This document shows positions 7,941-30,341 of a DNA stretch of 64,000 nucleotides, in pieces. Position numbers and translations under genes: made by a program. The stretch covers positions 54,781-118,780 of the forward strand of contig JAUVXJ010000006.1 in assembly GCA_030603665.1 (NCBI GenBank), written 5' to 3'. Each line of letters starts with the position of its first letter. Position 1 is the first letter of the stretch. A model generated the notes under the pieces. That model saw only the letters and a program-made list of their open reading frames with translations. It had not been told where the DNA came from and searched no databases. Source of the stretch: Chloroflexota bacterium. GTDB taxonomy: Bacteria > Chloroflexota > Anaerolineae > UBA7937 > B3-Chlor.

Positions 7941-7970
7941 CGACCAAGCTCACCTGCCGCTTTGTTAGGC
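7941..7970 (-). repeat. Internally deleted attC remnant marking the distal end of the array
   Basis: Minus strand GCCTAAC-AAA-GCGGCAGGTGAGCTTGGTCG; the right arm matches the sites at 9021 and 16652. Confidence 0.7.
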
Positions 7971-8945
7971 TTTGTTATTATGTTCCAAAGTTATTACTAC
8001 ATTTCCCTTCTTGTGCCCTCTTTCAACATAGCTATGAGCCTCGGCAGTTTGTTCTAACGGATAGCGTCTATCTATGACCGATTTCATCTTCCCCGCCTCA
8101 ATAAGCTCTTTGAGGAAAACTACATCTTCGGTACTATTCTCTGCTATCGCGAATATCGCTTTCTTGCTGCTTGTCATCGAAGTCCATAGCCCTCGAACAA
8201 TCTGTGGCAGCCCAGGGCTAGCTAAAAGATAGCGTCCATTTTGCTTTAGCGATCTTATACTACCTGAAAACGAACTCTTGCCTACAGCGTCAAAAACAAT
8301 ATCATAGGTCTCACCGCCTTTGGTAAAATCCTCTTTAGTGTAATCAATTACCTTATCGGCTCCCAGAGATTTCACCAATTCCAAATTCGTGGTACTGCAT
8401 ACCCCGGTAACTTCTGCCCCAAAGTACTTGGCAAGCTGTACCGCAGCAGTACCTACACTTCCAGAAGCTCCATAGATAAGAACTTCTTGTCCGCTCTGGA
8501 TGTTACCCTTGTCTCTAAGGAAAAACAATGCGGATAATGCCCCAAAAGGAACAGCGGCGGCTTCCTCATAGGTCATATTGGCCGGTTTTATTGCCACCGT
8601 CCCTTCTTCAGGCAGACATTTGTACTCGGCATGAGTACCGATGTACTCGCCAACACCGGTAGATCCGAAAACTTGGTCACCTTTCCTAAATACCTTTACA
8701 TCTTTGCCTACTGCTTCAATCTCCCCGGCTAGGTCAGACCCTAGTATAGTATTCTTTGGCCTTGGGAAACCCATCATGATTCTTCCCCAAAATGGGTCAC
8801 CCTTTCGAGATCTCCAGTCCCCTGATGATACTGTTGTCGCATATACCTTTACCAGTATTTCATTGTCCTTGGGAGTAGGTCTTGCTACCTCTTTGAGCTG
8901 AAGAACATCCGGTGGTCCGTATCTTGTGTATACAATCGCTTTCAT
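7965..8945 (-). CDS. Zn-independent MDR family NAD(P)H oxidoreductase, copy 1
   Basis: MKAIV..YGPPDVL start, GASGSVG nucleotide-binding motif, C-terminal [17 protein letters not shown]; no structural-zinc 4-Cys cluster. Confidence 0.9.
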
Positions 8946-9020
8946 GAGTCTCCTCCTTATCTACTTTGATTTGGCCATTTTCAATGTAGTTCACTACCAT
9001 ACATCCTGCAAGCTAGCAAT
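8946..9020 (-). repeat. Conserved ~75-bp MDR-cassette leader (other copies: 12799-12874, 16595-16651, 20080-20155, 21294-21368, 30342-30416)
   Basis: Shared core like GATCCGGTCATTTTGCGTGTAGTTCACCA (+ strand), lying between the GTTRRRY-type box and the MDR start codon. Confidence 0.8.
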
Positions 9021-9091
9021 ACCCAACGACCAAGCCCACCTGCCGCTATTCCGCTGCACTTCATAGCGCCAACTGTAACGCTTTGTTAGGT
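9021..9091 (-). repeat. attC-like site (hybrid arms)
   Basis: Minus strand ACCTAAC AAAGCGTTACAGTTGG...CGCTATGAAGTGCAGCGGAATAGCG...GCTTGGTC GTTGGGT. Confidence 0.8.
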
Positions 9092-9155
9092 CCTGCTATT
9101 ATGCTCCACAGTTATGCCTACATTCCCCTCTTTATGGCCTTCTTCGACATACCTC
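9086..9155 (-). pseudogene. 3' remnant of an MDR gene
   Basis: Encodes YVEEGHKEGNVGITVEHNSRT*, the MDR C-terminus, ending in the attC box. Confidence 0.75.
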
Positions 9156-9205
9156 AAGACTCATTCTACTTCCTCCTTTTTCCTTTCAGTCCTGCTTGCC
9201 GAACA

Positions 9206-9889
9206 CTAATCTAGATGACTGCCGTCGCAAAAAGGTCTATTAGAGCTCTTCCCACATCCGCAGAGGGTTACACGATTGCGAACTTCATATGTTGTACCAT
9301 CTGCTGATTCGATAGGAATGCCGCCCCGGACCCAGATAGGGCCCGTCTTCCCTGACTGAGTGTCCCAAACCAGACCGATAGACGGTTCGAAGACAGGCTC
9401 GATAGCTGTGCCCCTTTCATCCCAGACTACCAGCCTTCCGGAAGGGCAATCACAGGCTTCCTCGATAGCTATTTCTCTGGCATCGAGATTATGGGATTCT
9501 TCGGTGAGTTGCCATATTCCCCCGGCGCGGTCGCAGAAACGGGCGGTGGCACAGAAATCCGGTGCGTCGGTGAGTATGAGGCCTGGACCGGTTATTTCGT
9601 CGGCTTGCTCTAGATAGGGAGTGCGGGCAGCTTCTTCTGTACCGTCGAACTTGATTCTAACGTGAGTACCATCGCAAAATGGCCGGTTACGGGAGCGACC
9701 GCACCGACAGAGAGCATAGTTCTCCAGCGTCGGATATTCTTTGCCTTCTTTCCAGCCATGACTCTGCCCATCGGCATCAACCCGGATGATCTGCTCCGAA
9801 AGTGGAATCCCTCCCGTTACGAGGTAAGGGCCGTTCTTGGATACCTTGATTCTGTATTTGGCTACTTCTTGAGGATTGATTTCTGACAT
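9206..9889 (-). CDS. CDGSH iron-sulfur domain protein (two CDGSH motifs)
   Basis: ALCRCGRSRNRPFCDGTH and TLCGCGKSSNRPFCDGSH plus a central CATARFC...CPSG domain; start placed at ATG 9889. Confidence 0.88.
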   Translation of the reverse strand: MSEINPQEVAKYRIKVSKNGPYLVTGGIPLSEQIIRVDADGQSHGWKEGKEYPTLENYALCRCGRSRNRPFCDGTHVRIKFDGTEEAARTPYLEQADEITGPGLILTDAPDFCATARFCDRAGGIWQLTEESHNLDAREIAIEEACDCPSGRLVVWDERGTAIEPVFEPSIGLVWDTQSGKTGPIWVRGGIPIESADGTTYEVRNRVTLCGCGKSSNRPFCDGSHLD

Positions 9890-9899
9890 TCCCGTGTAT

Positions 9900-10172
9900 C
9901 TACACCATGGCAATCTTGGTCTTATTGTCTTCGAATTCAACTTCAAAGACCGTCTCGTCTTTTGCTCTACCTCCAAGAAGACCTATTCTGGGGCCAGCGA
10001 TGCATTTGCCGGTTGGTACATTGAATTTGGCGCCGTGGTTGGGGCAAGTAATCACCTTCTTGTGTCCCTTTTCAACATACCTGTGAGCCTCGGCCATCTG
10101 TTCCAATGGATGGCGTCGATCTATGACCGCCTTTGGCTTTCCCGCCTCAATAAGCTCTTTGATGTGCTCCAT
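9900..10172 (-). pseudogene. Chimeric ORF: MDR C-terminus fused in frame to a Rieske ferredoxin C-terminal half
   Basis: [20 protein letters not shown] joined to [22 protein letters not shown] (second Rieske box CxxH only). Confidence 0.7.
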
Positions 10173-10919: not shown

Positions 10920-10943
10920 TCCTGTGCAGTTACCTTGTTAGGT
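10920..10943 (-). repeat. attC left-half remnant
   Basis: ACCTAAC AAGGTAACTGCAC on the minus strand, overlapping the stop codon of the MDR remnant. Confidence 0.5.
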
Positions 10944-11249
10944 TCTGTTATTATGCTCCACAGTTATTACCACATTTCCCTTCTTGTGCCCCTTATCAAC
11001 ATAGCTATGAGCCTCGGCAATCTGTTCGAGCGGATAGCGTCTATCTATGACCGATCTTATCTTTCCCGCCTCAATAAGCTCTTTGAGGGAGATTAGATCT
11101 TCAGGACTTTCGGTTGACAGCGCACATATTGCTTTCTTGCCTCCTATTATTGAAGTCCTTAGCATTCGAACAAGCTGTCTCATCCCAAAGCCGGCGGGGG
11201 CAGAGATGAGGGTCAGTTTGCGATGCGATCCGTTCGCCGAGCATGTCAC
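10938..11249 (-). pseudogene. Chimeric remnant: MalT/LuxR-type P-loop fragment fused to the C-terminal ~80 aa of an MDR
   Basis: [13 protein letters not shown] followed by [31 protein letters not shown]; preceded by a GTTGAGT box at 11248-11254. Confidence 0.7.
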
Positions 11250-11316: not shown

Positions 11317-11643
11317 TCACGGCCGGCTCTTGAAGGCTTCCATAAGTGCGGGATAGAAGCCGCTCAGCGCAGCCACAAGCACGGCTAGTTTCACCGCAGC
11401 GAGCCATGTCAGGTTTGCGCTAATCAGACCCTGAGCGACCGCTCCGGGGAACAGGTCGGGAACGACCCACGCCCACACGAACTTGAACACGACCACCGAA
11501 ATGACAAAGGTCACGGCGACGGCGATGAGGATGGCGATCCCTATTGGCACCCCTTCAGTCACCCGTCTTTCTACTTCTTCAGCCACCCGCTTTTCTACTT
11601 CTTCAGCCATCCGCTTCTCTGCTTCGTCTCTTGACTCCTCCAT
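11317..11643 (-). CDS. Small membrane protein with N-terminal coiled-coil (108 aa), copy 1
   Basis: AAGGAGG RBS; near-identical to 21435-21761; EKRxAEEV repeats and two TM segments. Confidence 0.8.
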   Translation of the reverse strand: MEESRDEAEKRMAEEVEKRVAEEVERRVTEGVPIGIAILIAVAVTFVISVVVFKFVWAWVVPDLFPGAVAQGLISANLTWLAAVKLAVLVAALSGFYPALMEAFKSRP

Positions 11644-11811
11644 TGTAGTATCCTCCTTCATTTGATCCATAATATGCTCTAGTTGTACTCCTTCTAGGCG
11701 GCAACTTACAATACACAAGCGCATCCTTGATTGCCTGCGGCATCCGTCGCAGCCTCTACCCAGGCCGCCCCCTCCTGCTCACAGCCCCCAGCCGCCATCC
11801 GCGTCGCTTTG

Positions 11812-12798
11812 TTAGGTTTTGTTGTTATGCTCCACAGTTATGACTACATTTCCCTTCTTGTGCCCTTTGTCGACATACCTGTGAGCCTCGGGGATTTGGT
11901 CCAACGGATAGCGTCTATCTATGACCGACTTCATCTTCCCCGCCTCAATAAGCTCTTTGAGGAAAACCAAATCTTCCGTCCTAGAGGACGACGTCCCAGC
12001 TATTACTTTCTTGCCGCTTGTCATTGAAGTCCATAGCTTCTGAAGAAGTGGCAGCCCAGGGCCAGCTACAACATAGATTCCTTCTTTCTTTAGCGATCCT
12101 ATACAACCTGAGAGCGAACCCTTGCCCACCACGTCAAGAATGACATCATGGGTCTCACCGCTCTTGGTGAAATCTTCTTGAGTGTAGTCAATGACCTGGT
12201 CTGCACCAATCGAGCGCAGCATGTCCAATTTCGCCGTGCTGTCCACGCCAGTCACTTCAGCCCCAAAGTACTTGCCAAGCTGTATCGCCATAGTACCTAT
12301 ACTTCCGCCCGCACCATTAATCAGAAGCCTTTGTCCGCTCTGGATATCTCCTCTTCTAAGAAAGAACAATGCTTCAAGCCCCCCAACAGGAACGGCGGCT
12401 TCTTCTTCATAGGTCATATTGGCCGGCTTTGTTGCCAGCGCCCCTTCCTCAGGCAGGCATTTGTACTCGGCATAAGAACCAAAACTCATCCCGGTAGGTC
12501 CAAAAACTCGGTCACCTTTCCTAAATAGTTTTACGTCTTTGCCTACTGCTTCAATTCCTCCGGCTAACTCCTGCCCTAGTATAGTTATTCTCTTGGGTCT
12601 TCTGAGACCATTGTATATCCGCATGGGGAGCGATAAGAAGAGAGGGGATTTGAGACCTCGCATCTCACAGTCCCCTGCTGTTACTGTTGTCGCATATATC
12701 CTTATCAGTACTTCATTGTCCTTGGGAGTAGGTTTTTCTACCTCTTCGAGCTGAAGACCATCCGGCGGTCCGTATTCTCTCCATACAATTGCTTTCAT
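11812..12798 (-). CDS. MDR family oxidoreductase, copy 2
   Basis: Same motifs (GAGGSIG); the stop codon forms ACCTAAC at 11811-11817. Confidence 0.9.
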
Positions 12799-12874
12799 AG
12801 GTATTCCTCGACAGTTGCCTTGATCCGGTCATTTTGCGTGTAGTTCACCACAATCTATTCTATTGGTCTGCAAA

Positions 12875-12981
12875 GCCTAACGGTCGTGGCATAAGCGGCG
12901 CCCCACACATCTACATTAACCTCAGCTTCTCTCGGAGCGCATGCTATGCTCCTCCGCGTCCGCTTGATGCCATTGTTAGAC
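12875..12981 (-). repeat. Intact attC site (107 bp)
   Basis: Minus strand GTCTAAC AA TGGCATCAAGCGGACGCG ... GCGCCGCTTATGCCACGACC GTTAGGC; paired arms with the typical single unpaired base (GCATCAAGC vs GCTTATGC), which orients the site with the genes. Confidence 0.9.
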
Positions 12982-14491: not shown

Positions 14492-14584
14492 GCATAGCGG
14501 TCGGCGCTTAACCGGCGGCGTTCCTTGGCAGCTCTATTTCGCATGGTAGAGCTATAGCCGTCCGCGTTGGAGCGCTTGTTAGGC
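14492..14584 (-). repeat. attC site with variant GCT core
   Basis: Minus strand GCCTAAC AAGCGCTCCAACGCGGACGGC ... GCCGCCGGTTAAGCGCCGACC GCTATGC. Confidence 0.82.
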
Positions 14585-14692
14585 TTTGCTTTCATGTGCC
14601 AACGTGATTACTACGTGTCCCTTCTTGTGCCCCTTGTCGGCATACCTGTGAGCCTCGGCAATATGTTCAAAGGGATAGCGTCGATCAGCGAC
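14579..14692 (-). pseudogene. 3' remnant of an MDR gene
   Basis: [37 protein letters not shown], ending in GCCTAAC. Confidence 0.75.
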
Positions 14693-14727
14693 CGTCCGAC
14701 GGTGGCTCGAGCGCTACGGCTCCCTGA

Positions 14728-14913
14728 TTACGAGGTTTCCTTCAGCAGGTCCACCACCAGCCAGCAAGCTGCGCCGACCGCTAGAAAGCAGACCGCCTGG
14801 GGTGTGTCAGAGCTCCTGTACTGCTCGCGCCCCTCCTCCGTGCTCAGATCCGCCCCCGTCAATTCGCGGCACTTGATGGTCTCCATCTCGGCCTCGAAGC
14901 GGCGACGAAACAC
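14728..14913 (-). pseudogene. C-terminal fragment of a C-GCAxxG-C-C family putative redox protein
   Basis: RRFEAEMETIKCRELTGADLSTEEGR...C pattern; the N-terminal half is absent. Confidence 0.55.
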
Positions 14914-15679: not shown

Positions 15680-16591
15680 TCACCCTACCACAGTTATGAC
15701 GACATTTCCCTTCTTGTGTCCTTTGTCGACATACCTGTGAGCCTCGACGATCTGTTCCAACGGATAACGTCTATCTATGACCGCTTCTAGCTTTCCCGCC
15801 TCAACAAGCTCTTTGAGGAAGACCAGATCTTCAGTCTGCTCTTCGAAGCCTGAACCCCATACGGAAAGATAGTCACCTCCTTGTGTTAGCGAGCCTTTAC
15901 TCTGTGAAGACGAAATCTTGTTTACTGCGTCAAGAATAACATCGTAAGTCTCACCGCTTTGGGTAAAATCCTCTTCTGTGTAATCAATTACCTTGTCGGC
16001 TCCCAGAGATTTCACCCACCCTAGATTCGTGGTACTGCATACCCCGGTGACTTCTGCCCCAAAGTACTTGGCAAGCTGTACCGCATAGGTGCCTACACTT
16101 CCAGAAGCCCCATAGATCAGGACTTTCTGTCCGCTCTGGATATTCGCTTTTCTAATGAAAGACAATGCTGTAAGTCCCCCAATAGGAACGGCGGCGGCTT
16201 CCTCATAGGTCATATTGACGGGCCTTATTACCAGCACCCCGTCTTCAGGCAGACATATGTACTCGGCATAAGCACCCCCCCCAGAACCGGTAGGTCCACA
16301 AACTTGGTCACCTTTCTTAAACAGCCTCACATCTTTGCCTACCGCTTCAATCTCCCCGGCCAACTCATGCCCTAGTATTTCTTTTCTTGGTTTTCCAAAA
16401 CCCCATAATAATCGCAGGGGGAGCTGGAACAAGAGAGGGACTTTGAGACTTCGAATTCTCACATCCGCTGCTGCTACAGTTGCCGCATAAATCCTTACAA
16501 GTACTTCATTGTCCTTGGGAGTAGGCTTCTCTACCTCTTTGAGCTGAAGAACCTCCGGTGGTCCGTATTTCGTGCAAACAATCGCCTTCAT
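15680..16591 (-). CDS. MDR family oxidoreductase, copy 3 (short C-terminal variable region)
   Basis: [22 protein letters not shown]; GAGGAG RBS. Confidence 0.9.
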
Positions 16592-16863: not shown

Positions 16864-17880
16864 CTACGCGCTGGTAACGAGAACCACCTTGCCCGCGTAT
16901 CCGCCGCGCTCGAGTAGTTCGTGAGCACGAGCGGCCTCAGCCAACGGGAAACGCTCCGCCACGACCGGCTTGATACTGCCTGCCGCCAGTAGGTCGAGGA
17001 GTTCCGTCAGCGTTTCGCGGTACCAGGCGTTGTCCTTATCGAGATCCGGGGTCAAAGGCGCCGACTTGCCGTCCGGAATGAGTGCCAGCAGAGTCCGCAT
17101 CAGCAGGGTGAAGGGAATGACGCGCAGCCCCTCCTTCTTCGTGGCGGCCACACCGAACCACACCAACCGCCCGCCTTTGCGCAGGACCTGGTACGAGCGC
17201 CAGAGTTGCCTCGCGCCGCCGATGGGGTCGAACACGGCATCCACCCCGTCGCCGGTAAGACCACGGATCCGCTCGACGAAGTCCTCGGTGCGGTAGTCGA
17301 TCGGCGTGGCTCCGAGTGCGGACACGAGTTCGTGATTGTACTTGGACGCCGTGCCGTACATCTTGAGCTCTGCCAGCTTGCCAAGCCCGAGCAGAGCGGT
17401 CCCTACGCCTCCCGCCGCACCGTGGACGAGGATGCGCTCGCCGCTCCGGTTCTTGGAGGTTCGGTGCATGGCCATGTGGGCGGTGAGGTAGTTCACCACC
17501 ATGCAGACAGCTTCGGCAGGATCCACACCCGAGGGGACGGGCACCAACTCGCTGGCGGGCAGGCAGATGAACTCCGTGTAGCCGCCACCGGCGCCAAGTG
17601 AGAAGGTCGCGCCGGCAACCATCTGCCCCAGCTCGACGGTCGACACCTCCTCGCCCAACTTGTCCACCACGCCAGCGACGTCCTCGCCCAGGGTGAACGG
17701 CACGCTCGGAGTCCCGGGGAGCGAACCTGAACGTCGGAACATGAGATCGTAGCCGGAGATTCCGGCGGCCAGGACCTTCACCCGAACCTCGCCCGCCTGG
17801 GGTTCAGGGAGATCCTCTTCCACCACCTGCAACACGTCCGGCCCCCCATGCTGCGTAACGACGACGCGATGATGTTTCAT
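16864..17880 (-). CDS. MDR family oxidoreductase, second subfamily (MKHHRVVV type), copy 4
   Basis: GGPDVLQVVE, NYLTA, HGAAGGVG, GKVVLV; GC-rich; paralogue of 26598-27644. Confidence 0.9.
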   Translation of the reverse strand: MKHHRVVVTQHGGPDVLQVVEEDLPEPQAGEVRVKVLAAGISGYDLMFRRSGSLPGTPSVPFTLGEDVAGVVDKLGEEVSTVELGQMVAGATFSLGAGGGYTEFICLPASELVPVPSGVDPAEAVCMVVNYLTAHMAMHRTSKNRSGERILVHGAAGGVGTALLGLGKLAELKMYGTASKYNHELVSALGATPIDYRTEDFVERIRGLTGDGVDAVFDPIGGARQLWRSYQVLRKGGRLVWFGVAATKKEGLRVIPFTLLMRTLLALIPDGKSAPLTPDLDKDNAWYRETLTELLDLLAAGSIKPVVAERFPLAEAARAHELLERGGYAGKVVLVTSA

Positions 17881-17978
17881 GCCAGCACCTCCTTGTCTTT
17901 GGCTCTCGGCTTGCCGGTGCCCTGGAGTTCCAGGACACCATCAGGTGACCCGTAGTTGTGATAGACGATTGCTTTCAT
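17877..17978 (-). pseudogene. 33-codon 5' remnant of an MDR gene, translationally coupled to the downstream MDR
   Basis: MKAIVYHNYGSPDGVLELQGTGKPRAKDKEVLA*; its TGA overlaps ATG 17880. Confidence 0.75.
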
Positions 17979-19033: not shown

Positions 19034-19083
19034 CTCCTCCAAGATTGCGCGGCCTATTGGTTGGGTCTGGCGCTTTGCCAGGT
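19034..19083 (-). repeat. Fused attC-half/RBS spacer (other copies 22808-22858, 26263-26313)
   Basis: Minus strand ACCT(GG/GA/AG)C..GC..(C/T)CCAACC.ATA.G..GCGCAATCT(T/C)GGAGGA, directly joining consecutive MDR genes. Confidence 0.7.
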
Positions 19084-20079
19084 CTTGCTGTTATGTTCCA
19101 CAGTGATGACTACATTTCCCTTCTTGCCCCCCCTTTCGACATACCTGTGAGCCTCGGCCATTTGCTCCAAGGGATAGCTTCTATCTATGACCGTTCTTAT
19201 CTTTCCCGCCTCGATAAGCTCTTTGAGGAAGACCAAATCTTCAGTTCCATAGGTTACATTCCCAACTATGGCTTTCTTGCTACCTCTGCTGGAAGTCCCT
19301 CCCCCTCGAAACATCTGCGACAGCCCAGGGTTAGCTGAAAGATAGCGTCCATTTTCCTTTAGCGCTCCTATACAACCTGAAAACGAGCTCACTCCTACCA
19401 CGTCAAAGATGACATCATAGGCCTCACCGGTCTTGGTGAAATCTTCTTGAGTGTAGTCAATGACCTGGTCTGCACCAATGGAGCGCAGCATGTCCAGTTT
19501 CCCCGTGCTGTCCACGGCAGTCACTTCAGCCCCAAAGTGCTTGGCAAGCTGTATCGCTATAGTACCTATACTTCCACCCGCACCATTAATCAGAAGCCTT
19601 TGTCCGCTCTGGACGTTTCCTTTTCTAAGATGATGCAATGCCTCAAGTCCCCCAAGGGGAACGGCGGCGGCTTCCTCATAGGTCATAATGGCCGGCTTCA
19701 TTGCCAGCAGCCCTTCAATCCCTTCAGGTTCTTCGGCCAGACATATGTACTCAGCATAAGCGCCCATACCAAAACCGGTATGTGCAAAGACTTGGTCACC
19801 TTCTTTGAACAGCTTCACATCTTTGCCTACTGATTCAATCTCCCCGGCCAACTCTTGCCCCAGTATCTTTCTCCTTGGTCCTCTGAGACCAAAGCCCATT
19901 CGCATGAGGAGCTGCAACATGAGAGGCTGCTTGAGACCTCGGAGTTCACAGTCCCCTGCTGTTACTGTTGTCGCATCTATTCTTATCAGTATTTCATTGT
20001 CCTTCGGGATAGGTTCTTCTACCTCTCTCAGTTCAAGAACGTCCGGTGATCCCCATTTGGTGCAGATGATCGCCTTCAT
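19054..20079 (-). CDS. MDR family oxidoreductase, copy 6 (stop lost, reads into attC remnant)
   Basis: Same motifs; ends EHNSKTWQSARPNQ, with TGG where paralogues have the stop codon. Confidence 0.9.
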   Translation of the reverse strand: MKAIICTKWGSPDVLELREVEEPIPKDNEILIRIDATTVTAGDCELRGLKQPLMLQLLMRMGFGLRGPRRKILGQELAGEIESVGKDVKLFKEGDQVFAHTGFGMGAYAEYICLAEEPEGIEGLLAMKPAIMTYEEAAAVPLGGLEALHHLRKGNVQSGQRLLINGAGGSIGTIAIQLAKHFGAEVTAVDSTGKLDMLRSIGADQVIDYTQEDFTKTGEAYDVIFDVVGVSSFSGCIGALKENGRYLSANPGLSQMFRGGGTSSRGSKKAIVGNVTYGTEDLVFLKELIEAGKIRTVIDRSYPLEQMAEAHRYVERGGKKGNVVITVEHNSKTWQSARPNQ

Positions 20080-20155: not shown

Positions 20156-20285
20156 ACCTATCCACTTGGATTCAGTTGCGGCGGAGGTCTGCAAAAAGGC
20201 ATCCCACTAACCAAGACCCGCCGCAACCCAGAAACACTAATGGGAACCACAGCTCCCGGCCGTCAACTGTAACGCTTTGCTAGGT
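20156..20285 (-). repeat. Degenerate attC site
   Basis: ACCTAGC AAAGCGTTACAGTTGACGGC ... CCGCCGCAACTGAATCCAAGTG GATAGGT. Confidence 0.7.
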
Positions 20286-21293
20286 TTGGTTATTATGCTC
20301 CACCGTTATGACTATATGTCCCTTCTTGAGCCCTTCTTCAACATACCGGTGAGCCTCGGCAGTCTGTTCCAACGGAAAGCGTCTATCTATGACCGCTCTT
20401 ATCTTCCCCGCCTCAATCAGCTCTTTGACGGAAATCAAATCCTCAGTACTTCCTGGTGCAATCGCACATATTACTTTCTTGCTGCCTATCATTGAAGTCC
20501 ATAGCATTTGAAAAAGCTGTCTCATCTTAAAGCTGGCCAAGAGATAGCGCCCGTTTTGCGATAGCGATGTCTTGCATCGTGAAAACGAACTCTTGCCTAA
20601 TATGTCAAAAATAAGATCATAGGTCTCACCGCTTTTGGTAAAATCCTCCTTGGTGTAATCAATGACCTTATCAGCCCCCAGAGATTTCACAAATTCCAAT
20701 CTCGGGGTACCGCATACCCCGGTAACTTCTGCGCCAAAGTGCTTGGCAAGCTGTACCGCAGCTGAACCTATCGCTCCAGAAGCGCCATTGATGAGGACTT
20801 TTTGTCCGCTCTGAATATTCCCCTTCTCTCTAAGCAAATTCAACGCAACTATTGACCCCCATAGAACGACGACGGCTTCCTCATGGGTCATATTGGCCGG
20901 CTTTGTGGCCAACACCCCGTCTTCAGGCATACATACATACTCGGCATAAGCACCCATGATCTGACCACGATATCCAAAGACTTGGTCACCTTCTTTGAAT
21001 CGCTTTGCATCCTTGCCGGTTGCTTCAATTTCCCCGGCAAACTCACTCCCTAGTATAGCTATCTTTGGTTTTCTGAAACCAAAGAACATTCCTGTGACGA
21101 GCCAGAAGGGGAAAGGCATGTTGAATTTCCGAGGGGAGACTTCTTTGAAATTCCGAGCTACAATATCCCCGTAACTTACTGTTGCCGCATATACTTTTAT
21201 GAGTACTTCACTGTCCTTGGGAGTAGGTTTTTCTACCTCTTTGAGCTGAAGAACATCCGGTGGTCCGTATTCTGTGTATACAATCGCTTTCAT
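20280..21293 (-). CDS. MDR family oxidoreductase, copy 7
   Basis: Same motifs; longest N-terminal variable loop ([19 protein letters not shown]). Confidence 0.9.
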
Positions 21294-21434: not shown

Positions 21435-21761
21435 TCACGGCCGGCTTCTGAAGGCTTCGATCAGTGCGGGATAGAAGCCGCTCAGCGCAGCCACAAGCAC
21501 GGCTAATTTGACCGTGGCGAACCAGGTCAGGTTTGCGCTAACCAGACCCTGAGCGACCGCCCCGGGGAACAGGTCGGGAACGACCCACGCCCATACGAAC
21601 TTGAACACGACCACCGAAATGACAAAGGTCACGGCGACGGCGATGAGGATGGCGATCCCTATTGGCACCCCTTCAGTCACCCGTCTTTCAACTTCTTCAG
21701 CCACCCGCTTTTCTAGTTCTTCAGCCATCCGTTTCTCTGCTTCGTCTTTTGACTCCTCCAT
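21435..21761 (-). CDS. Small membrane protein (108 aa), copy 2
   Basis: Near-identical to 11317-11643, including the RBS and downstream flank. Confidence 0.8.
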   Translation of the reverse strand: MEESKDEAEKRMAEELEKRVAEEVERRVTEGVPIGIAILIAVAVTFVISVVVFKFVWAWVVPDLFPGAVAQGLVSANLTWFATVKLAVLVAALSGFYPALIEAFRSRP

Positions 21762-21778: not shown

Positions 21779-21811
21779 GGAATAGCGGTAGGGTGTTGCG
21801 CTCTGTTAGGT
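21779..21811 (-). repeat. attC left-half remnant
   Basis: ACCTAAC AGAGCGCAACACCCTACCGCTATTCC, matching the left arm of the 16652 site family. Confidence 0.65.
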
Positions 21812-22804
21812 CTTGCTGTTATGTTCCACAGTGATGACTACATTTCCCTTCTTGCCCCCTTTTTCGACATACCTGTGGGCCTCGGCAGTCTGTTCCAGCG
21901 GATAGCTTCTATCGATGACCGGTTTTATCTTTCCCGCCTCAATAAGCTCTTTGAGGAAAACCAAATCTTCGGTCGTAGGTGACCCTGCCCCGAATATCAC
22001 CTTCTTGCTGCCGGTCATTGAAGTCCATCGCCCTCGAACCATCTGTGACAGCGGAGGGTTAGCTAAGAGATAGCGTCCGTTTTCCTCCAGCGATCTTACA
22101 CTGCCTGAAAACGGACTCTTCCCTACCACGTCAAGAATAGCGTCATAGGTCTCACCGCTCTTGGTGAAATCCTCTTGAGTGTAATCAATGACCTGGTCTG
22201 CACCAATGGAGCGCAACATGTCTAATTTCCCCGCGCTGTCCCCACCGGTCACTTGAGCCCCAAAGTACTTGGCAAGCTGTATCGCCATAGTACCTATACT
22301 TCCACCCGCACCATTAATCAACAGCTTCTGTCCGCTCTGGACATTTCCTTTTCTAAGAAAATGCAATGCTTCAAGTCCCCCGACAGGAACGGCGGCGGCT
22401 TCCTCATAGGTCATATTGGCCGGCTTTATTACCAGCACCCCTTCTCTAGGTTCTTCAGGCAGACATATGTACTCGGCATAAGCACCCAGACCAAAACCGG
22501 GAGTTCCAAAAACTTGGTCACCTTCTTTAAACAGTTTGACATCTCTTCCTACTGCTTCGATTTCCCCGGCTAGCTCCTGCCCTAGTATGGTCATTCTCCT
22601 TGGTTTTCTGAGACCCACATATGCTCGCATGGGGAGCGACAAGAAGAGAGGGAATTTGAGACTTCGCATCTCACAGTCCCCTGCTGTCACTGTTGTCGCA
22701 TATATTCTGATCAGTACTTCATTGTCCTTGGGAGTAGGTTTTTCCACCTCTTTGAGCTGAAGAACATCCGGTGGTCCGTATTCTGTCCATACTATTGCCT
22801 TCAT
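21806..22804 (-). CDS. MDR family oxidoreductase, copy 8
   Basis: Same motifs; GGAGG RBS. Confidence 0.9.
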   Translation of the reverse strand: MKAIVWTEYGPPDVLQLKEVEKPTPKDNEVLIRIYATTVTAGDCEMRSLKFPLFLSLPMRAYVGLRKPRRMTILGQELAGEIEAVGRDVKLFKEGDQVFGTPGFGLGAYAEYICLPEEPREGVLVIKPANMTYEEAAAVPVGGLEALHFLRKGNVQSGQKLLINGAGGSIGTMAIQLAKYFGAQVTGGDSAGKLDMLRSIGADQVIDYTQEDFTKSGETYDAILDVVGKSPFSGSVRSLEENGRYLLANPPLSQMVRGRWTSMTGSKKVIFGAGSPTTEDLVFLKELIEAGKIKPVIDRSYPLEQTAEAHRYVEKGGKKGNVVITVEHNSKT

Positions 22805-22852
22805 CAGTTTCCTCCAAGATTGCGCGGCATATTGGTTGGATGCAGCACTTTG

Positions 22853-23836
22853 TCAGGTCATGTTATGTGCCACAGTGATGACTGCTTTACCTAGGACGTG
22901 TCCTTCTTCAAGGTACCGGAAAGCTTGAGCGGCCTCGCTCAACGGGTAACATCTATCTATGACAGGTACGACCTTGCCGCTTTCGAAGAGCTCTGCCAAA
23001 AGAACCAAGTCTTCTCTATTGTTTGCATCCCAGGCATTGAGACCTATCTTCTTGCTCCCCATCCTGGATATCAGAGTCCCTAGGAATACGACTTGGAGAA
23101 GTGTGGCCAAGGAACCTCCGACCCAGACATAGACTCCCTCGGGACTCAAAGCACGCCGGTAATCGAGAACCGAACGATATGCCACAACATCAAAGATCAG
23201 ATCATAGCGTTGCCCACTCTTGGTGTAGTCCTCTTGGGTGTAATCAAGAACATGGTCAGCACCAATGGAGCGCAGCATGTCCAGTTTCATCGCGCTATCC
23301 ACGCCGGTCACTTCGGCCCCAAAGTACTTGGCCAACTGAACCGCAAACGTTCCCATACCACCGCCCGCACCATTGATCAGGACCTGTTGTCCTCGCTGAA
23401 TCTGTCCTTTGTCGCGAAGACTCTGCAGGGAGATGATTGCCGAGTGAGGATAGGTCGCTGCTTCCTCGAATGTCATACTGGCCGGTTTCAGCGCCAGTGC
23501 ATTCTCAGAAGCACACACATACTCAGCAAAGGTGCCATAACCATACGGATAAGATAAGTCCCCCCATACCTCATCACCTGGCTGAAACCGCTTTACGTTT
23601 CCGCCAACCGCCTCAACCCTCCCGGCCATGTCTGTACCGAGTATCTTGTACCTTGGTCTTATGGGCCCAACGAAGCGCGCGTGCCACTCACCTCTCAGGG
23701 TCTCCAGGTCACCTGCATTGACGGACACCGCATGAACTCTTACCAGTGCTTCATCGTCCTTGGGAGTGGGTCTTTCTACCTCTGTGAGCTGAAGGACATC
23801 CGGTGGTCCGTATTCTGTGCATACGATCGCCTTCAC
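22853..23836 (-). CDS. MDR family oxidoreductase, copy 9
   Basis: GTG start at 23836 (VKAIVCTEYGPP) behind GGAGG; GAGGGMG. Confidence 0.9.
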   Translation of the reverse strand: MKAIVCTEYGPPDVLQLTEVERPTPKDDEALVRVHAVSVNAGDLETLRGEWHARFVGPIRPRYKILGTDMAGRVEAVGGNVKRFQPGDEVWGDLSYPYGYGTFAEYVCASENALALKPASMTFEEAATYPHSAIISLQSLRDKGQIQRGQQVLINGAGGGMGTFAVQLAKYFGAEVTGVDSAMKLDMLRSIGADHVLDYTQEDYTKSGQRYDLIFDVVAYRSVLDYRRALSPEGVYVWVGGSLATLLQVVFLGTLISRMGSKKIGLNAWDANNREDLVLLAELFESGKVVPVIDRCYPLSEAAQAFRYLEEGHVLGKAVITVAHNMT

Positions 23837-24720: not shown

Positions 24721-24854
24721 TTATCTCCTTTGTTTTCGACATCTTTGATGAGTTTCATTGAATTGGACTTGACAAGACTGTGGTCGCCATCCTGTTCCTA
24801 AGAGCTGAAATGGGCTAGAAATGCTCTATAGGCAAACCTCCTTCTTAAATATCG

Positions 24855-25142: not shown

Positions 25143-25251
25143 TACCCTGTACCTGTTGTGGCCGGTCATAACAGCCTGTAACCTATGCCACTTGCGCGCA
25201 ACCCCGCGACTCTTGCACAAATGGGTGGCGATGTGTCTGCGGTACGGGTTG

Positions 25252-26259
25252 TCATTTGCCATTATCCCCCACAGTAATTACTATCTTCCCCAGGTGGGGT
25301 TCCTCTGAAAGATACCGGAGAGCTTCAGGGACCTCACTTAACGGGTACCGTCTATCTATGACAGGCACCACTTTGCCGGCTTCAAAAAGCTCCCCCAATA
25401 GAGCCAAATCCTCCTTCCTGTTTGGTTTCCAAATCACGACACCCATCTTCTTGCTCCCGCTCCTTGAAACCAATGGTCCTAGAAACATGGCTTGGAAAAT
25501 CCCAGCCGTGGAACCTCCGACAAAGACACAGATTCCCCCGGGATTCAAAGCACGCCTGTAAGCGAGAATCGAACGACGTGCCACAACATCAACAATCAGG
25601 TCATAACGCTGCCCACTCTTGGTGAAGTCTTCTTGAGTGTAATCAATGACATGGTCTGCACCAATCGAGCGCAGCATGTCCAGTTTCATCGTGCTGTCCA
25701 CGCCAGTCACTTCAGCCCCAAAGTGCTTGGCGATCTGCACCGCAAACGTACCCACACCACCACCCGCGCCATTGATCAGAACCTTTTGCCCTGACTGAAG
25801 CGGTCTCTTGTGCTCAGGCCTCACTCCCATAGGAGCCTCGCGAAGATTCTGCAGGGCGAGGACTGCCGCTTGAGGATAGGCCGCTGCTTCCTCCCATGTC
25901 ATACTGGCCGGTTTCGGCCTTAATGCGTCTTCAGGAACACGTACATACTCAGCAAGAGCGCCCCAACCATACTCCGTCAAATCCCCCCATATCTCATCAC
26001 CTGGCTGAAACTGCTTCACGCTTCTGCCAACCGCTTCAACCCGCCCGGCTATGTCAGTTCCGAGTATCTTGTACGTTGGTCGTAGAGGCGCCACCATGCG
26101 GACTATGAAGTCACCTCTCAGGGTTTCCAAGTCAGCTCCATTTAAGGATGACGCATGAACTCTTACCAGTACTTCCCCCTCCTTGGGGGTAGGTCTTTCT
26201 ACCTCCTTGAGCTGAAGAACATCCGGTGGGCCGTATTTCGTGCATACAATCGCTTTCAT
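25252..26259 (-). CDS. MDR family oxidoreductase, copy 10
   Basis: Same motifs; GAGGGVG; extra insert EAPMGVRPEHKRP. Confidence 0.9.
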   Translation of the reverse strand: MKAIVCTKYGPPDVLQLKEVERPTPKEGEVLVRVHASSLNGADLETLRGDFIVRMVAPLRPTYKILGTDIAGRVEAVGRSVKQFQPGDEIWGDLTEYGWGALAEYVRVPEDALRPKPASMTWEEAAAYPQAAVLALQNLREAPMGVRPEHKRPLQSGQKVLINGAGGGVGTFAVQIAKHFGAEVTGVDSTMKLDMLRSIGADHVIDYTQEDFTKSGQRYDLIVDVVARRSILAYRRALNPGGICVFVGGSTAGIFQAMFLGPLVSRSGSKKMGVVIWKPNRKEDLALLGELFEAGKVVPVIDRRYPLSEVPEALRYLSEEPHLGKIVITVGDNGK

Positions 26260-26307
26260 GAGTTTCCTCCGAGATTGCGCCCCATATCGGTTGGGTGCAG
26301 CGTTTCG

Positions 26308-26575
26308 CTAGGTTCTGCTGTTATGTTCCATAGTTATTAGGATCTTTCCTAGGTTGGGTTCTTCTTCAAGATACCGGAGAGCTTCAGGGACCTCACTCAA
26401 CGGGTAACGTCTATGAATTACAGGTACTACTTTGCTGGCTTCAAAAAGCTCTACCAAAAATGCCAAGTCTTCCTTATTGTTTGGTTTCCACGGCACTGCA
26501 CCCATTTTCTTACTCCCGGTCATAGAAATCAATGGTGCCAATTTCACCGCACGCGGTCTCTTTGCTTGAATTCAT
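26308..26575 (-). pseudogene. Chimeric remnant: DUF4386-type start (MNSSKETA) joined out of frame to an MDR C-terminus
   Basis: RBS and first codons match the gene starting at 10886; then PLISMTGSKKMG..VIHRRYPL..EHNSRT*. Confidence 0.7.
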
Positions 26576-26597
26576 TTTTCCTTCCCTTTGACCCTGG

Positions 26598-27644
26598 CTA
26601 CGCGCTGGCAACGAGAACCACCTTGCCCGCGTATCCGCCGCGCTCAAGCAGCTCGTGAGCACGAACGGCCTCAAGCAATGGAATGCGCTCCGCCACCACC
26701 GGCTTGATCCTGCCCGCTGCCAGCGAATCGAAGAGCTCCGTCAGCGTTTCGCGGTACCAAGCGTTGTGCGTGAGAGGAAACTTTAGTATGTTCGGGTCTA
26801 ACGGCACCCGCCTGCTGCCCGGAATGAGCTTAAGCAGAAAAGCCGCCAACCCGCTGAGTAGAATGGCCCCCATCCCCTTCTTGGATGTCGCGACATTGCC
26901 GAACATCACCAACCGTCCGCCTTTGCGCAGGGTTCGGTATGAACGCCAGAGTTGCCGTGCGCCGCCGATGGTGTCGAACACGGCATCCACCCCATCGCCG
27001 GTAAGAGTACGGATGCGCTCGACAAAGTCTTCAGTGCGGTAGTCGATCGGTGTGGCTCCGAGTGCGGACACGAGTTCGTGGTTGTACTTGGACGCCGTGC
27101 CGTACATCTCCAGCCCGGCCAGCTTGCCGAGCCCGAGCAGAGCGGTCCCTATGCCTCCCCCCGCACCGTGGACCAGGATGCGCTCGCCGCTCCGCACGCT
27201 GGCAGCCCGGTGCAGGTACAGGTGCGCGGTGAGGTAGTTCTCCACCATGCAGACGGCCTCGGCAGGATCCAGGCCCGAGGGGACGGGCACCAACTGGCTG
27301 GCGGGCCGGCATATGAACTCCGCGTAGCCACCGCCATCACCAAAGGTCCAGCCGGCAACCCTCTGCCCCGGCTCGACGGTTGACACTCCCTCGCCCAGCT
27401 TGTCCACTACACCAACGATGTCCCCGCCCGGTGTGAACGGCACGCGCGGAGTCCCGGGGACCGAAATCGAGCGGACCATGCGATCGAAGCCGGAGACTCC
27501 GGCGGCCACGACCTTCACCCGAACCTCGCCGGCCTGGGGTTCCGGGAGATCCTCTTCCACCACCTGCAACACGTCCGGCCCGCCATGCTGCGACACGACG
27601 ACGCGATGATGTTTCACTGCATTCGGTTCTTCTTTGGTAGTCAT
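26598..27644 (-). CDS. MDR family oxidoreductase, second subfamily, copy 11
   Basis: Paralogue of 16864-17880; AAAGGAG RBS. Confidence 0.9.
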   Translation of the reverse strand: MTTKEEPNAVKHHRVVVSQHGGPDVLQVVEEDLPEPQAGEVRVKVVAAGVSGFDRMVRSISVPGTPRVPFTPGGDIVGVVDKLGEGVSTVEPGQRVAGWTFGDGGGYAEFICRPASQLVPVPSGLDPAEAVCMVENYLTAHLYLHRAASVRSGERILVHGAGGGIGTALLGLGKLAGLEMYGTASKYNHELVSALGATPIDYRTEDFVERIRTLTGDGVDAVFDTIGGARQLWRSYRTLRKGGRLVMFGNVATSKKGMGAILLSGLAAFLLKLIPGSRRVPLDPNILKFPLTHNAWYRETLTELFDSLAAGRIKPVVAERIPLLEAVRAHELLERGGYAGKVVLVASA

Positions 27645-27785
27645 CGTTTCTTCTCCTTTTTGACTACTCCGAGATTGGTGAAATCTTACGCTTACAGGAT
27701 AGCAGCCAGGTGGTATTAGTATTATGCCCTGGTATGACCGCGAAAACGTTAGTTAGTGGGTTAACTCTATGGTTGTCACATCCAT

Positions 27786-28745
27786 TCACATAGTTATGAC
27801 CACTTTTCCTTTGGCGTGTCCTTCTTCAAGATACCGGAGAGCTTCAGGGACCTCACTTAACGGGTAACGTCGATCTATTACAGGTACTACTTTGCCGGCT
27901 TCAAAAAGCTCGTCCAAAAAAACCAAATCTTCCTTCTTGTTTGGCTTCCACATCACCATACCTATCTTCTTACTCCCGATCATTGAGATAAATAGTCCTA
28001 GAAGCACATTTAGAAACACTCGAGCCATGGGACCTCCGACCATGACACAAATTCCCTTGGGACTCAAGGCACGCTTATAATCGAAAATCGAACGATATGC
28101 CACAACATCAACAACCAGGTCATAACGCTGCCCACTTTTGGTGAAATCTTCTTCAGTGTAATCAATGACATGATCTGCACCAATCGAGCGCAGCATGTCC
28201 AGTTTCCCCGTGCTGTCCACGCCAGTCACTTCAGCCCCAAAGTACTTGGCGATCTGCACCGCAAACGTACCTACACCGCCCCCCGCACCATTGATCAAAA
28301 CCTTCTGTCCTGGCTGAATCTGTCTCTTATCGCGAAGACCCTGCAGGGCGAGGACTCCCGCTTGAGGATAGGTCGCTGCTTCTTCGAATGTCATACTGGC
28401 CGGTTTCGGCGCCAATTCCTTTTCAGGAACAGATACAGACTCGGCAAAAGCGCCGCAACCACACACGAATAGGTCCCCCCATACCTCATCACCTGGTTGA
28501 AACTGCTTTACGTTTCTGCCAACCGCCTCAACCCGCCCCGCTATGTCAGATCCGAGTATCTTGCTTTTTGGTTTTTGTTTCAGAGACCCCCCGTACGTCA
28601 CTCTCAGTGTTTCCAAGTCAGCCGCATTTAAGGATGCCGCATGAACTTCTACCAGTACTTCATTGTCCTTGGGAGTAGGTTTTGCTACCTCTTTGAGCTG
28701 AAGAACATCCGGTGGTCCGTATTTTGTGCAAACGATCGCTTTCAC
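27786..28745 (-). CDS. MDR family oxidoreductase, copy 12
   Basis: GTG start at 28745 behind GGAGG; same motifs. Confidence 0.9.
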   Translation of the reverse strand: MKAIVCTKYGPPDVLQLKEVAKPTPKDNEVLVEVHAASLNAADLETLRVTYGGSLKQKPKSKILGSDIAGRVEAVGRNVKQFQPGDEVWGDLFVCGCGAFAESVSVPEKELAPKPASMTFEEAATYPQAGVLALQGLRDKRQIQPGQKVLINGAGGGVGTFAVQIAKYFGAEVTGVDSTGKLDMLRSIGADHVIDYTEEDFTKSGQRYDLVVDVVAYRSIFDYKRALSPKGICVMVGGPMARVFLNVLLGLFISMIGSKKIGMVMWKPNKKEDLVFLDELFEAGKVVPVIDRRYPLSEVPEALRYLEEGHAKGKVVITM

Positions 28746-28862
28746 AGGTATTCCTCCGAGTTCGCTTCGCTCGCGAGCGATGGAGATATCTCCCGAAGTC
28801 GCCCTATCCAAGCAGTGACTTTGACTCTTTACACTGTACTTCGCAGCTCATGAGACTCAATC

Positions 28863-29231
28863 TCAGGCTACCCACTTCCATGCATACCAGACAGTCAGCA
28901 CATTGAACACAAGTCCTACAATGATTAAGAACTTGTCATACGCGGAAGGGTATGTTGGCAACCCAAAGAGATTAAAAAGAAAGAGGATAGTGGCTGCGAC
29001 GATGCTTACCCAGCGAATCGCGGGATACTTCAACGTCAGGGTCAGCACAACCATAACGATCGGAATCAACATGAAAACTGCGAGTCCCAACCACACTACC
29101 TGACTTGGTTGCGTACCCATGATCTCTCCCGGTTTGAAGTCACCAGCGAATATTCGCAGCACATCCCCCAGAAGATAGACCAACATCAAGACTACCCACA
29201 TTCCTGAAAGCACTATCCTCGTATCAACCAT
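28863..29231 (-). CDS. DUF6326-like small membrane protein
   Basis: R..LS..W...ML.YL.GDV, IPIVMVVLTL and terminal VWYAWKW pattern. Confidence 0.7.
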   Translation of the reverse strand: MVDTRIVLSGMWVVLMLVYLLGDVLRIFAGDFKPGEIMGTQPSQVVWLGLAVFMLIPIVMVVLTLTLKYPAIRWVSIVAATILFLFNLFGLPTYPSAYDKFLIIVGLVFNVLTVWYAWKWVA

Positions 29232-29366
29232 GATTCAATCTCCTCCCTTATGAATGAGAATAGACACTGTTACGTATCGGCTACTTCAACTTGTATCACT
29301 CGTGCCGTGCGCGCAACCGTGCGACTCCCACACTAATAGGTGGCGATGCTTCTGCAATAGGGGTTC

Positions 29367-30341
29367 TCATTTGGTGTTATGCTCCACAGTGATGACTACT
29401 TTGCCTTGGGCGTGTCCTTCTCCGTAATACCGGAAAGCTTCAGGGACCTCGCTCAACGGGTAACGTCTGTCTATTACAGACTTCACTTTGCCTGCTTCAA
29501 TAAGCTCCTTCATGAAGACTAGATCCTTCTGGTTTACGCTGTGGGACAATTGAACCACCTTCTTACTCCCGGTCATTGAAATCAATGGACCTCGGAACAG
29601 AGCACTCGCGGAAAATGCGCATGCAACATAAACCCCCTTGGGACTTAAAACACGCACATAATCTGAGACCGAGCGATTGGCCACAATGTCAAAAATCAGG
29701 TCATAACGCTGCTCACTTTGGGTGAAATCCTCTTGAGTGTAATCAATGACCTGGTCCGCACCAATCGATCGCACTAAGTCGACATTCCGCGTGCTGCACA
29801 CGCCAGCCACTTTAGCCCCGAACGATTTGGCGATCTGCACTGCAAACGTACCGTTACCCCCAGACGCACCATTAATCAAAATCCTCTGCCCTGGCTGAAT
29901 CTGTCCTTTGTCGCGAAGGCCCTGCAAGGCGGTGACTGCCGCTTGAGGTACAGCCGCTGCTTCCTCCCATGTCATATTGGCCGGTTTCGGGGCCAATGCA
30001 TATTCAGGAGCAGATACATATTCGGCAAAAGCTCCAAAACCATCGTCGCCCAGGTCCCCGAATACCTCATCACCTGGCTGAAACTGCTTTACGTTTCTGC
30101 CAACCGATTCAACCCGCCCCGCCACGTCACCTCCGGGTATCTTGTGTTTTGGGTTTAGAAGCCCTCCGCCCGCTAGGCGCACCAAGAACGGTTTGCCTCT
30201 CACGAGAGCCAGGTTAGCCCAGACTATCGATGCTGCGTGTATTCTTATCAGTACTTCGTTGTCTTTGGGAGTAGGTTCTTCTACCTCTTTGAGCTGAAGA
30301 ACATCCGGTGGTCCGTATTCTGTGTATACAATCCCTTTCAT
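29367..30341 (-). CDS. MDR family oxidoreductase, copy 13
   Basis: [31 protein letters not shown]. Confidence 0.9.
   Translation of the reverse strand: MKGIVYTEYGPPDVLQLKEVEEPTPKDNEVLIRIHAASIVWANLALVRGKPFLVRLAGGGLLNPKHKIPGGDVAGRVESVGRNVKQFQPGDEVFGDLGDDGFGAFAEYVSAPEYALAPKPANMTWEEAAAVPQAAVTALQGLRDKGQIQPGQRILINGASGGNGTFAVQIAKSFGAKVAGVCSTRNVDLVRSIGADQVIDYTQEDFTQSEQRYDLIFDIVANRSVSDYVRVLSPKGVYVACAFSASALFRGPLISMTGSKKVVQLSHSVNQKDLVFMKELIEAGKVKSVIDRRYPLSEVPEAFRYYGEGHAQGKVVITVEHNTK

Follow-up and report, generated by a model that had tools for sequence, protein, structure and literature searches.

The best described relatives of the genes considered here are two zinc-free enzymes of the medium-chain dehydrogenase/reductase (MDR) superfamily, ceQORH, the gamma-ketol/oxoene reductase of the Arabidopsis chloroplast envelope (PDB 5A3J/5A4D), and the quinone oxidoreductase (QOR) of Coxiella burnetii (3TQH), which are their best matches in both sequence and fold. 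In the parts of PMC5343027 on which we draw, ligand binding shifts the ceQORH stretches Asn46-Leu61 and Ile250-Lys269 and moves the loop Leu97-Gly103 onto the ligand, the loop with Thr251 is in contact with the nicotinamide ribose, helix 254-267 sets the oligomeric state, and 13-KOTE is contacted by Arg58, Arg63, Leu100, Ile265 and Thr266. The same parts of that paper assign the 2'-phosphate to Arg190 and a substrate-stabilising role to Asn46 of ceQORH and Zta1, and report the proposal that the counterpart of the loop Leu97-Gly103 in the plant enzymes AtAOR and FaEO limits substrate length. Here, we examine an array of related genes in a 64,000-nucleotide (nt) stretch of the draft genome of a Chloroflexota bacterium (contig JAUVXJ010000006.1, positions 54,781 to 118,780; hereafter, the window, in which positions are counted from the first letter). 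Its minus strand carries, between positions 7965 and 30341, a set of 11 intact paralogues that belong to a single zinc-free, MDR/QOR-like family (family A), accompanied by two genes of a second MDR family (family B) and by six relics. With a probability of roughly 0.7, we read this locus as a birth-and-death tandem array of old MDR genes that encode zinc-free, NAD(P)H-dependent reductases of the QOR, ceQORH or alkenal-reductase kind and in which short-tract gene conversion has been at work; this is ordinary enzyme-family evolution, with no special diversity-generating system.

The family A genes, each identified as an open reading frame (ORF) with Pfam matches, fall into classes 1a, 1b and 2 and are named below by their first coordinate (segments 1 to 3 and the beta2 block are defined further on):

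7965..8945, minus strand: MDR paralogue, class 1a, 326 residues, beta2 end GVCSTTN
11812..12798, minus strand: MDR paralogue, class 1b, 328 residues, beta2 end GVDSTAK
15680..16591, minus strand: MDR paralogue, class 1a, segment 2 shorter by about 25 residues
18031..19029, minus strand: MDR paralogue, class 1b, starting with GTG, separated by 24 nt from the 19054 gene upstream of it
19054..20079, minus strand: MDR paralogue, class 1b
20280..21293, minus strand: MDR paralogue, class 1a, longest segment 1 (36 residues)
21806..22804, minus strand: MDR paralogue, class 1b, the reference copy
22853..23836, minus strand: MDR paralogue, class 2, GTG start, GGAGG 7 nt upstream
25252..26259, minus strand: MDR paralogue, class 2, with orthologues in three genomes of the same genus (G005, G002 and G004)
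27786..28745, minus strand: MDR paralogue, class 2, GTG start
29367..30341, minus strand: MDR paralogue of class 2 in its body, but with a leader and first ~90 nt that resemble class 1

Class 1 copies are 60-78% identical in amino acids and class 2 copies 62-76%, with 49-56% across the two classes, and nucleotide identity lies above amino acid identity in all comparisons of copies. The repeated DNA block that the initial annotation had singled out in these paralogues is real: the 33-mer recurs exactly at 8889, 21237, 22748, 28689 and 30285 and with one to three mismatches at 12742, 16535, 18973, 23780 and 26203, that is, 10 matches with up to three mismatches compared with none in 100 shuffles. 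The five exact sites are thus as described, but the N-terminal block to which they belong is present in 10 copies rather than five; the five loop peptides quoted alongside are all found in the translations. The accompanying picture of a constant scaffold interrupted by two variable segments is right about the scaffold and wrong about the number, which is three. Among the seven class 1 copies, amino acid identity is 80%, 74% and 78% in the scaffold stretches of residues 1-30, 153-228 and 279-326, compared with 36% in segment 1, 46% in segment 3 and 37% in segment 2. In the reference copy, the protein of which provides the residue numbering, these elements are located as follows:

22715-22804, minus strand: N-terminal block
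22589-22675, minus strand: segment 1 (residues 44-72)
22478-22510, minus strand: segment 3 (residues 99-109)
22223-22255, minus strand: beta2 block (residues 184-194)
21971-22069, minus strand: segment 2 (residues 246-278)

Among solved structures, the nearest to these proteins in sequence are the Coxiella QOR 3TQH (E-value 8e-35), ceQORH 5A3J (1e-33) and the strawberry enone oxidoreductase FaEO 4IDA (2.5e-32), and an AlphaFold (AF2) model of the 21806 protein (pLDDT 92.2, from a 41-row input alignment) is matched by Foldseek to ceQORH and 3TQH with TM values of 0.87-0.88. All 13 full-length MDR genes, the two of family B included (about 33% identity to family A), score above the Pfam gathering thresholds of ADH_N, ADH_zinc_N and ADH_zinc_N_2; the GroES-like and Rossmann domains and the glycine-rich motif of the MDR superfamily are present, with the dinucleotide motif GAGGSIG, GASGSVG or GAGGGVG in each of the 11 family A copies. 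An NCBIfam scan of four MDR proteins gave no model at its cut-off, and the best scores for the PIG3-type quinone oxidoreductase model TIGR02824 were 159.7-206.7 bits against a cut-off of 296.8.

In true alcohol dehydrogenases (ADHs), the zinc-ligand positions are a Cys, the His of 'GHE' and a Cys or Glu, and a four-Cys lobe holds the structural zinc. These ligands are lacking in the array, just as the initial annotation had it: at the position equivalent to ceQORH Asn46 none of the 11 copies has a Cys, the place of 'GHE' is taken by GQE, GSD, GME, GTD or GGD, with GHE solely in 15680, and the lobe at residues 95-112 contains zero to two Cys (two to four in each whole protein), so that neither the catalytic triad nor the four-Cys structural lobe of a zinc-dependent ADH is found. 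The equivalent of Asn46 itself is Asn in three copies (22853, 25252 and 27786) and Thr, Ser, Ala or Val in the others. The nearest relatives in sequence and in fold are zinc-free QOR-type enzymes and, judged by alignment and modelled fold, the array proteins belong to an uncharacterised branch of the zinc-free QOR-type reductases. Members of the family abound, with at least 8000 close database matches and 55,032 representatives at E<=0.001, and the names attached to the top homologues suggest Anaerolineae or Promineifilaceae (Chloroflexota). Within the source genome (a 4.19-Mb draft in 32 contigs), every family A match, namely 11 copies and one relic, lies in the array.

The segments were placed by HMMER alignment to ceQORH, the numbering of which agrees with the residues named in PMC5343027; that paper is the single source of the loop mapping, and the nearness of the loops to the cofactor is deduced from the alignment. 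Segment 1 corresponds to ceQORH 50-67 with an insertion of 12 residues (helix 53-63 in the model), segment 3 to ceQORH 94-105, and segment 2 to ceQORH 248-280, its helix spanning 252-264 in the model vs 254-267 in ceQORH. The suggestion that the variable parts lie near the substrate cleft is therefore supported by homology, the segments being the apparent counterparts of ceQORH ligand- and cofactor-site elements. By the same homology, all three segments would line the ligand and nicotinamide site, and segment 2 is, in all appearance, a subunit-contact element as well. Segments so placed imply that each copy may take a different substrate range, with alpha,beta-unsaturated carbonyls or quinones as the probable candidates, and that the array could act as a battery of reductases. 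The cofactor side of the site differs too: strand beta2 ends in GVD-S-T-G-K in seven copies and in GVC-S-T-T/R-N, a form that resembles ceQORH, in four. An acidic residue at the end of the Rossmann beta2 strand favours NADH, and by these textbook rules the Asp-versus-Cys position would usually decide between NADH and NADPH.

The differences among the loops are old. A family match at E<=1e-60 was found in 7 of the 31 genomes searched (the source genome included), and the matches in the same genus all lie in arrays (six in G005, five in G002 and two in G004). For 7 of the 11 copies, recognisable orthologues are present in the fetched same-genus arrays; outside the 5' end, the orthologue pairs are recovered with 96-100% bootstrap, except for the weak 7965/G2_2054 pair, and in a tree of third positions only, with 97-100%. 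Because there are orthologues of each class and of most single copies, the copies predate the species. The loops are visibly alike within orthogroups, and the short segment 2 of 15680 (~25 residues less) is common to its orthologues in G005 and G002. With the 21806 protein, the best 120 outside homologues share 79-95% identity; they keep its loop motif, and its closest neighbour in the array reaches at most 78%, below the identity of those homologues. Across 18 orthologue pairs, the NG86 (Nei-Gojobori) method gives an omega of 0.35 for segment 1, 0.29 for segment 3 and 0.45 for segment 2, at amino acid identities of 72, 66 and 68%, compared with 1.02, 1.24 and 0.83 in the class 1 pairs of the source genome. 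Maximum likelihood (ML) estimates under GY94, computed on fixed trees, agree, with segment omega of 0.19-0.50 in four orthogroups and 0.95 across the 11 paralogues, and scaffold omega of 0.18-0.24 and 0.405, respectively. The loop differences are thus fixed, lineage-stable signatures, and the term 'hypervariable' that the initial annotation had applied to them is an overstatement, given that segment omega is about 1 and not above and that the loops are stable across species; in sliding windows, pN/pS is never far above 1 except in a short class 2 stretch of very low pS.

Nor is this variability peculiar to the array. Among 127 family representatives (those of 300-350 residues among the 150 best 50%-cluster representatives, 23 having been dropped by length), the per-position entropy profile follows that of the array with a Spearman coefficient of 0.69, the three segments are the most variable parts (3.08, 2.47 and 2.37 bits vs 1.57-1.93 for the scaffold), and segment length ranges match those in the array. 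Because the identical segments are the most variable ones in unclustered representatives, the array samples a loop diversity that is family-wide. A local diversification, which had been proposed with the proviso that unclustered homologues should not be equally variable, cannot be upheld in view of the equal variability and length range in the 127 representatives. The broader idea of diversification of substrate specificity fares better in one respect, namely, that loops kept within orthogroups and differing between paralogues would fit with it; what has to be given up is the local process.

The most serious competitor of the array of old, functionally distinct reductases is relaxed constraint, whereby the copies are redundant and back each other up, the loops drift neutrally, and the array is decaying. 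The paralogue comparisons are what such drift would produce (segment omega of 0.95 by ML and 0.83-1.24 by NG86, with 0.405 in the scaffold), six relics are present, and the array (window positions 8000-30000) is a low-GC island, at 0.49-0.55 vs 0.58-0.62 in the flanks. All 11 ORFs are intact, however, and loops free to drift would not be expected to stay conserved within orthogroups (omega 0.19-0.50, 66-72% amino acid identity), nor the short segment 2 of 15680 to be retained in two other genomes, nor the loop motif of 21806 to be kept in its top 120 database homologues. On balance, we consider relaxed constraint improbable.

The second component of the preferred reading, exchange between copies, was likewise anticipated: recombination between the constant blocks and the resulting mosaics are detected by the pairwise homoplasy index (PHI), a run-length test, a breakpoint scan, segment trees and comparison with orthologues. 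With all 11 copies, none of 2000 permutations reached the observed PHI value (z -6.0), and the result was the same for third positions only (0/2000, z -3.9) and for class 1 (0/2000). In segment trees, the branch that separates class 1 from class 2 varies in length, the extremes being about 0 over nt 1-105 and 1.04 substitutions per site over nt 766-930; a one-breakpoint scan puts the best break at nt 90, with a delta AICc (corrected Akaike information criterion) of 102; and a run-length test on polymorphic sites is passed, after Bonferroni correction, by 11 of the 55 pairs, all of them class 1 x class 2, with tracts at nt 9-93 and nt 605-675.

Comparison with orthologues tells the same story for the 5' end. 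Over the first 99 nt, the paralogues of the source genome are 84.7% identical, orthologues 79.1% and cross-genome paralogues 76.8%, and paralogues within the relatives reach 72.7% (G005) and 73.9% (G002); in the remaining gene, it is the orthologues that are closer, at 80.0% vs 67.7% for the source genome's own paralogues. The proportion of synonymous differences (pS) between classes 1 and 2 is 0.28 in codons 1-30 and 0.58-0.72 elsewhere, compared with 0.51 between orthologues. The clearest single case is 29367, the 5' end of which is 93-94% identical to class 1 copy 20280 and 72% identical to its own orthologue; this gene has the class-1-type leader as well. A second tract covers the end of beta2. 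In codons 186-212, third-position identity between classes 1b and 2 is 65% between genomes and 77% inside the source genome, compared with 40% for 1a x 2, whereas to either side of these codons the close pair is 1a and 1b; this mosaic is present in all three same-genus assemblies. The beta2 tract, exchanged between class 1b and class 2, is older than the 5' tract. Whole-gene concerted evolution is rejected because orthology is still evident in the third-position trees; no identical run between copies exceeds 55 nt, and overall copy identity is at most 85%. The copies have been reshaped at their conserved blocks, by ectopic conversion of short tracts or by unequal crossing-over. The first ~90 nt were homogenised across all classes in the source genome, with the leader carried along in some copies, an older exchange between classes 1b and 2 involved the Rossmann beta2 block, and gene turnover left six relics.

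The leader is a block found directly upstream of five to six of the array genes:

30349..30421, minus strand: shared leader/promoter block of ~73 nt
8953-9025, minus strand: further leader copy
12807-12879, minus strand: further leader copy
20088-20160, minus strand: further leader copy
21301-21373, minus strand: further leader copy
16615-16628, minus strand: partial leader copy

Its copies are 62-100% identical to each other and have in common an invariant GTGAACTAC core and a GGATCA box. The core is also found before array genes in G002 and G005, and in G002 it precedes the first array gene (L008 10873-10886). The exact 12-mer core occurs six times in the genome, four times in the array and twice elsewhere; with one mismatch allowed, there are 42 occurrences against 22 for a control, about twice as many, which does not show a wider regulon. 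A look through the ORFs of at least 200 residues, confined to the window, turned up no MalT-like regulator. Nothing matched in an Rfam scan of positions 7000-32000 at E<=1, and an RNA element in the leader is unsupported, the consensus fold of seven leaders consisting of five weak pairs (-0.66 kcal/mol) with no compensatory change. With neither an Rfam match nor a conserved fold, the leader is probably a shared promoter or operator.

Such a shared upstream element invites a bolder interpretation, a combinatorial battery under one control, in which conversion would keep a common module of promoter, leader and first 30 codons, differently specialised copies would answer one signal, and the beta2 exchange would have moved NADH or NADPH preference between substrate classes. 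Recombination between the constant blocks would then be a source of new cofactor-substrate combinations rather than noise. We regard this scheme as speculative and unlikely.

A somewhat less probable alternative attributes the sameness of the 5' DNA to selection at the nucleotide level, on a common leader, a translation start region or a regulator site, rather than to conversion. The shared block indeed spans the ~73-nt leader into the coding region in five to six copies, the leader core recurs before array genes in G002 and G005, and 5' third-position identity is raised even between genomes. Against this stand the paralogues of G005 and G002, which are not homogenised (72.7% and 73.9% vs 84.7% here), the leader-less copies 18031, 21806, 22853, 25252 and 27786, which still share the 5' coding block, the 5' end of 29367 with its much greater likeness to a class 1 neighbour (93-94%) than to its orthologue (72%), and the failure to find a conserved RNA fold. 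Selection in place of conversion seems to us improbable.

Programmed diversification, with the constant blocks as recombination handles and the relics as silent donor cassettes that shuffle the loops, in the manner of antigenic variation or of diversity-generating retroelements, could appeal to the conversion tracts in constant blocks, to several promoterless relics and to a 5' block shared at the DNA level. It is very improbable: the loops are stable across species and conserved among orthologues, the relics hold the constant C-terminus and not the variable loops, no reverse transcriptase or recombinase domain turned up in the 27 ORFs scanned (6511-33281), the proteins are cytoplasmic-type enzymes rather than surface proteins, and loop variation is equal in unclustered homologues. 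Least credible of all is an assembly artefact, the mosaics being chimeras made by a short-read assembler that joined close paralogues, which the 32-contig draft and the very short and numerous public-run contigs over the genes might suggest, but which is contradicted by identical runs of at most 55 nt in copies at most 85% identical overall and by three independent same-genus assemblies that contain the same orthologues, partly in the same order, together with the beta2 mosaic.

Several observations nevertheless weigh against the birth-and-death array with short-tract conversion. The substrates are guessed from distant homologues, at about 30% identity. The same segments vary family-wide, so that nothing in the variation is array-specific; omega near 1 between paralogues is also expected from neutral drift, and for an enzyme, 0.40 is a high omega in the scaffold. 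The GC content of third codon positions is 0.41-0.55 here vs 0.57-0.73 in the relatives' orthologues, which inflates orthologue pS and makes the relative ages uncertain. On the side of recombination, PHI gave no signal in class 2 alone (1369 of 2000 permutations), the pairwise counts are mutually dependent, and the PHI, run-length and breakpoint tests are our own implementations; sequence conservation lengthens the runs, and delta AICc responds to differences in branch length as well, so that the comparison with orthologues carries more weight. Third-position identity at the 5' end is raised between genomes as well (61-63% vs 39-48% elsewhere), which implies that part of the 5' sameness is old or selected. 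Finally, the genome is a draft in 32 contigs, and the contigs of public runs give no long piece that confirms the array, although three independent same-genus assemblies share orthologues and part of the gene order.

The other members of the array are the relics, located by tblastn of the 11 proteins against the window (five C-terminal, one weak and N-terminal), the family B genes, identified as ORFs with Pfam matches, and membrane proteins:

9080..9154, minus strand: MDR C-terminal relic, 25 residues (E 8e-6)
10056..10163, minus strand: MDR C-terminal relic, 36 residues (E 7e-14)
10941..11195, minus strand: MDR C-terminal relic, 85 residues in an open frame, without the first ~250 codons (E 3e-35)
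14582..14788, minus strand: degraded MDR C-terminal relic with an internal stop and a frame break (E 3e-13)
17793..17978, minus strand: weak family A N-terminal relic with an internal stop, overlapping the start of a family B gene (E 1e-5)
26314..26553, minus strand: class 2 C-terminal relic, 80 residues, just upstream of the 25252 gene (E 2e-32)
16864..17880, minus strand: family B MDR gene, 338 residues
26598..27644, minus strand: family B MDR gene, 348 residues
10194..10886, minus strand: DUF4386 membrane protein (Pfam) inside the array, just downstream of a reductase gene or relic
24013-24720, minus strand: second DUF4386-type membrane protein (Pfam, weaker match), just downstream of a reductase gene or relic
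21435..21761, minus strand: small membrane protein after the 21806 gene, 94% protein identity to the copy at 11317-11724
within 11317-11724, minus strand: small membrane protein after the 11812 gene

Both family B genes have a GC content near the flank value. The two small membrane proteins have a charged, repeat-like N-terminus and are 94% identical as proteins and 93% identical in DNA over 300 nt, much closer than the adjoining reductase genes (84% in nucleotides); a Pfam scan found no matching family for them. Between two of the reductase relics, at 9206-9976 on the minus strand, is a gene whose product combines two CDGSH iron-sulfur domains with one divergent 4Fe-4S mono-cluster domain, and other genes interspersed in the array encode NmrA-like, glyoxalase-fold and DUF6326-like proteins. 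Abutting the array, at 6511-7953 on the minus strand, a 480-residue protein has a multi-pass membrane C-terminus and an N-terminus with weak matches, below the cut-off, to bactofilin/FapA-like beta-solenoids.

Among 24 public sequencing runs, 20 contain at most 0.16 of the sampled words. Four of the runs (X1, X5, X10 and X20, marine-sediment or marine metagenomes) have short contigs over the reductase genes at window positions 17900-27800, with no contig that bridges genes and with many ambiguous joints; there are thousands of such contigs at 90-99% likeness, those listed being 115-475 nt long. This shows a very high microdiversity of the reductase family in those metagenomes, at the level of the family and without showing that the source organism is present; the contigs are uninformative as to contiguity, habitat or expression.

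What the locus offers is not a new mechanism of variation, to which it does not point, but a known kind of evolution in a very common family. The 11 related reductases, with differences focused in three putative ligand-site segments and a cofactor block, would be well suited to the mapping of specificity determinants in a poorly characterised branch of the MDR superfamily, and the array is a clear bacterial example of short-tract concerted evolution within otherwise orthologous genes. When the literature was searched for conversion in tandem MDR arrays and for paralogues of QOR in Chloroflexi, no such array was among the matches listed, which leaves it possible that one has been described.

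Of the described systems, ceQORH and 3TQH come closest, at about 30% identity. Both have the loop-helix-loop after beta-E that is seen in the array model, and the same three regions form the ligand site; ceQORH lacks the 12-residue insertion (predicted helix 53-63) in segment 1 of the array, and at the end of beta2 it has a Cys followed by Arg190 where 7 of the 11 array copies have Asp. The plant alkenal and enone reductases AtAOR and FaEO (PDB 4IDA-4IDF) have the same fold as the array protein (TM 0.80), and the loop proposed to set their substrate length (in the portion of PMC5343027 cited above) is equivalent to segment 3 of the array; these are single plant genes, unlike the tandem copies here. 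A parallel within the same phylum, as judged by homologue names, is provided by the catabolic paralogue expansions of SAR202 (Chloroflexota), where, in the sections of PMC10444878 that we cite, the idea is likewise that a wealth of old paralogues widens the spectrum of organic compounds handled, apparently in enzyme families other than that of the array. The process itself has its precedent in the concerted evolution and ectopic conversion of prokaryotic paralogues, the hallmark of which, in the sections of PMC6053082 used here, is that paralogues within a genome are closer to each other than to their orthologues; in the array, this effect is confined to short tracts, such as the 5' ~90 nt, and the rest of each gene follows orthology.

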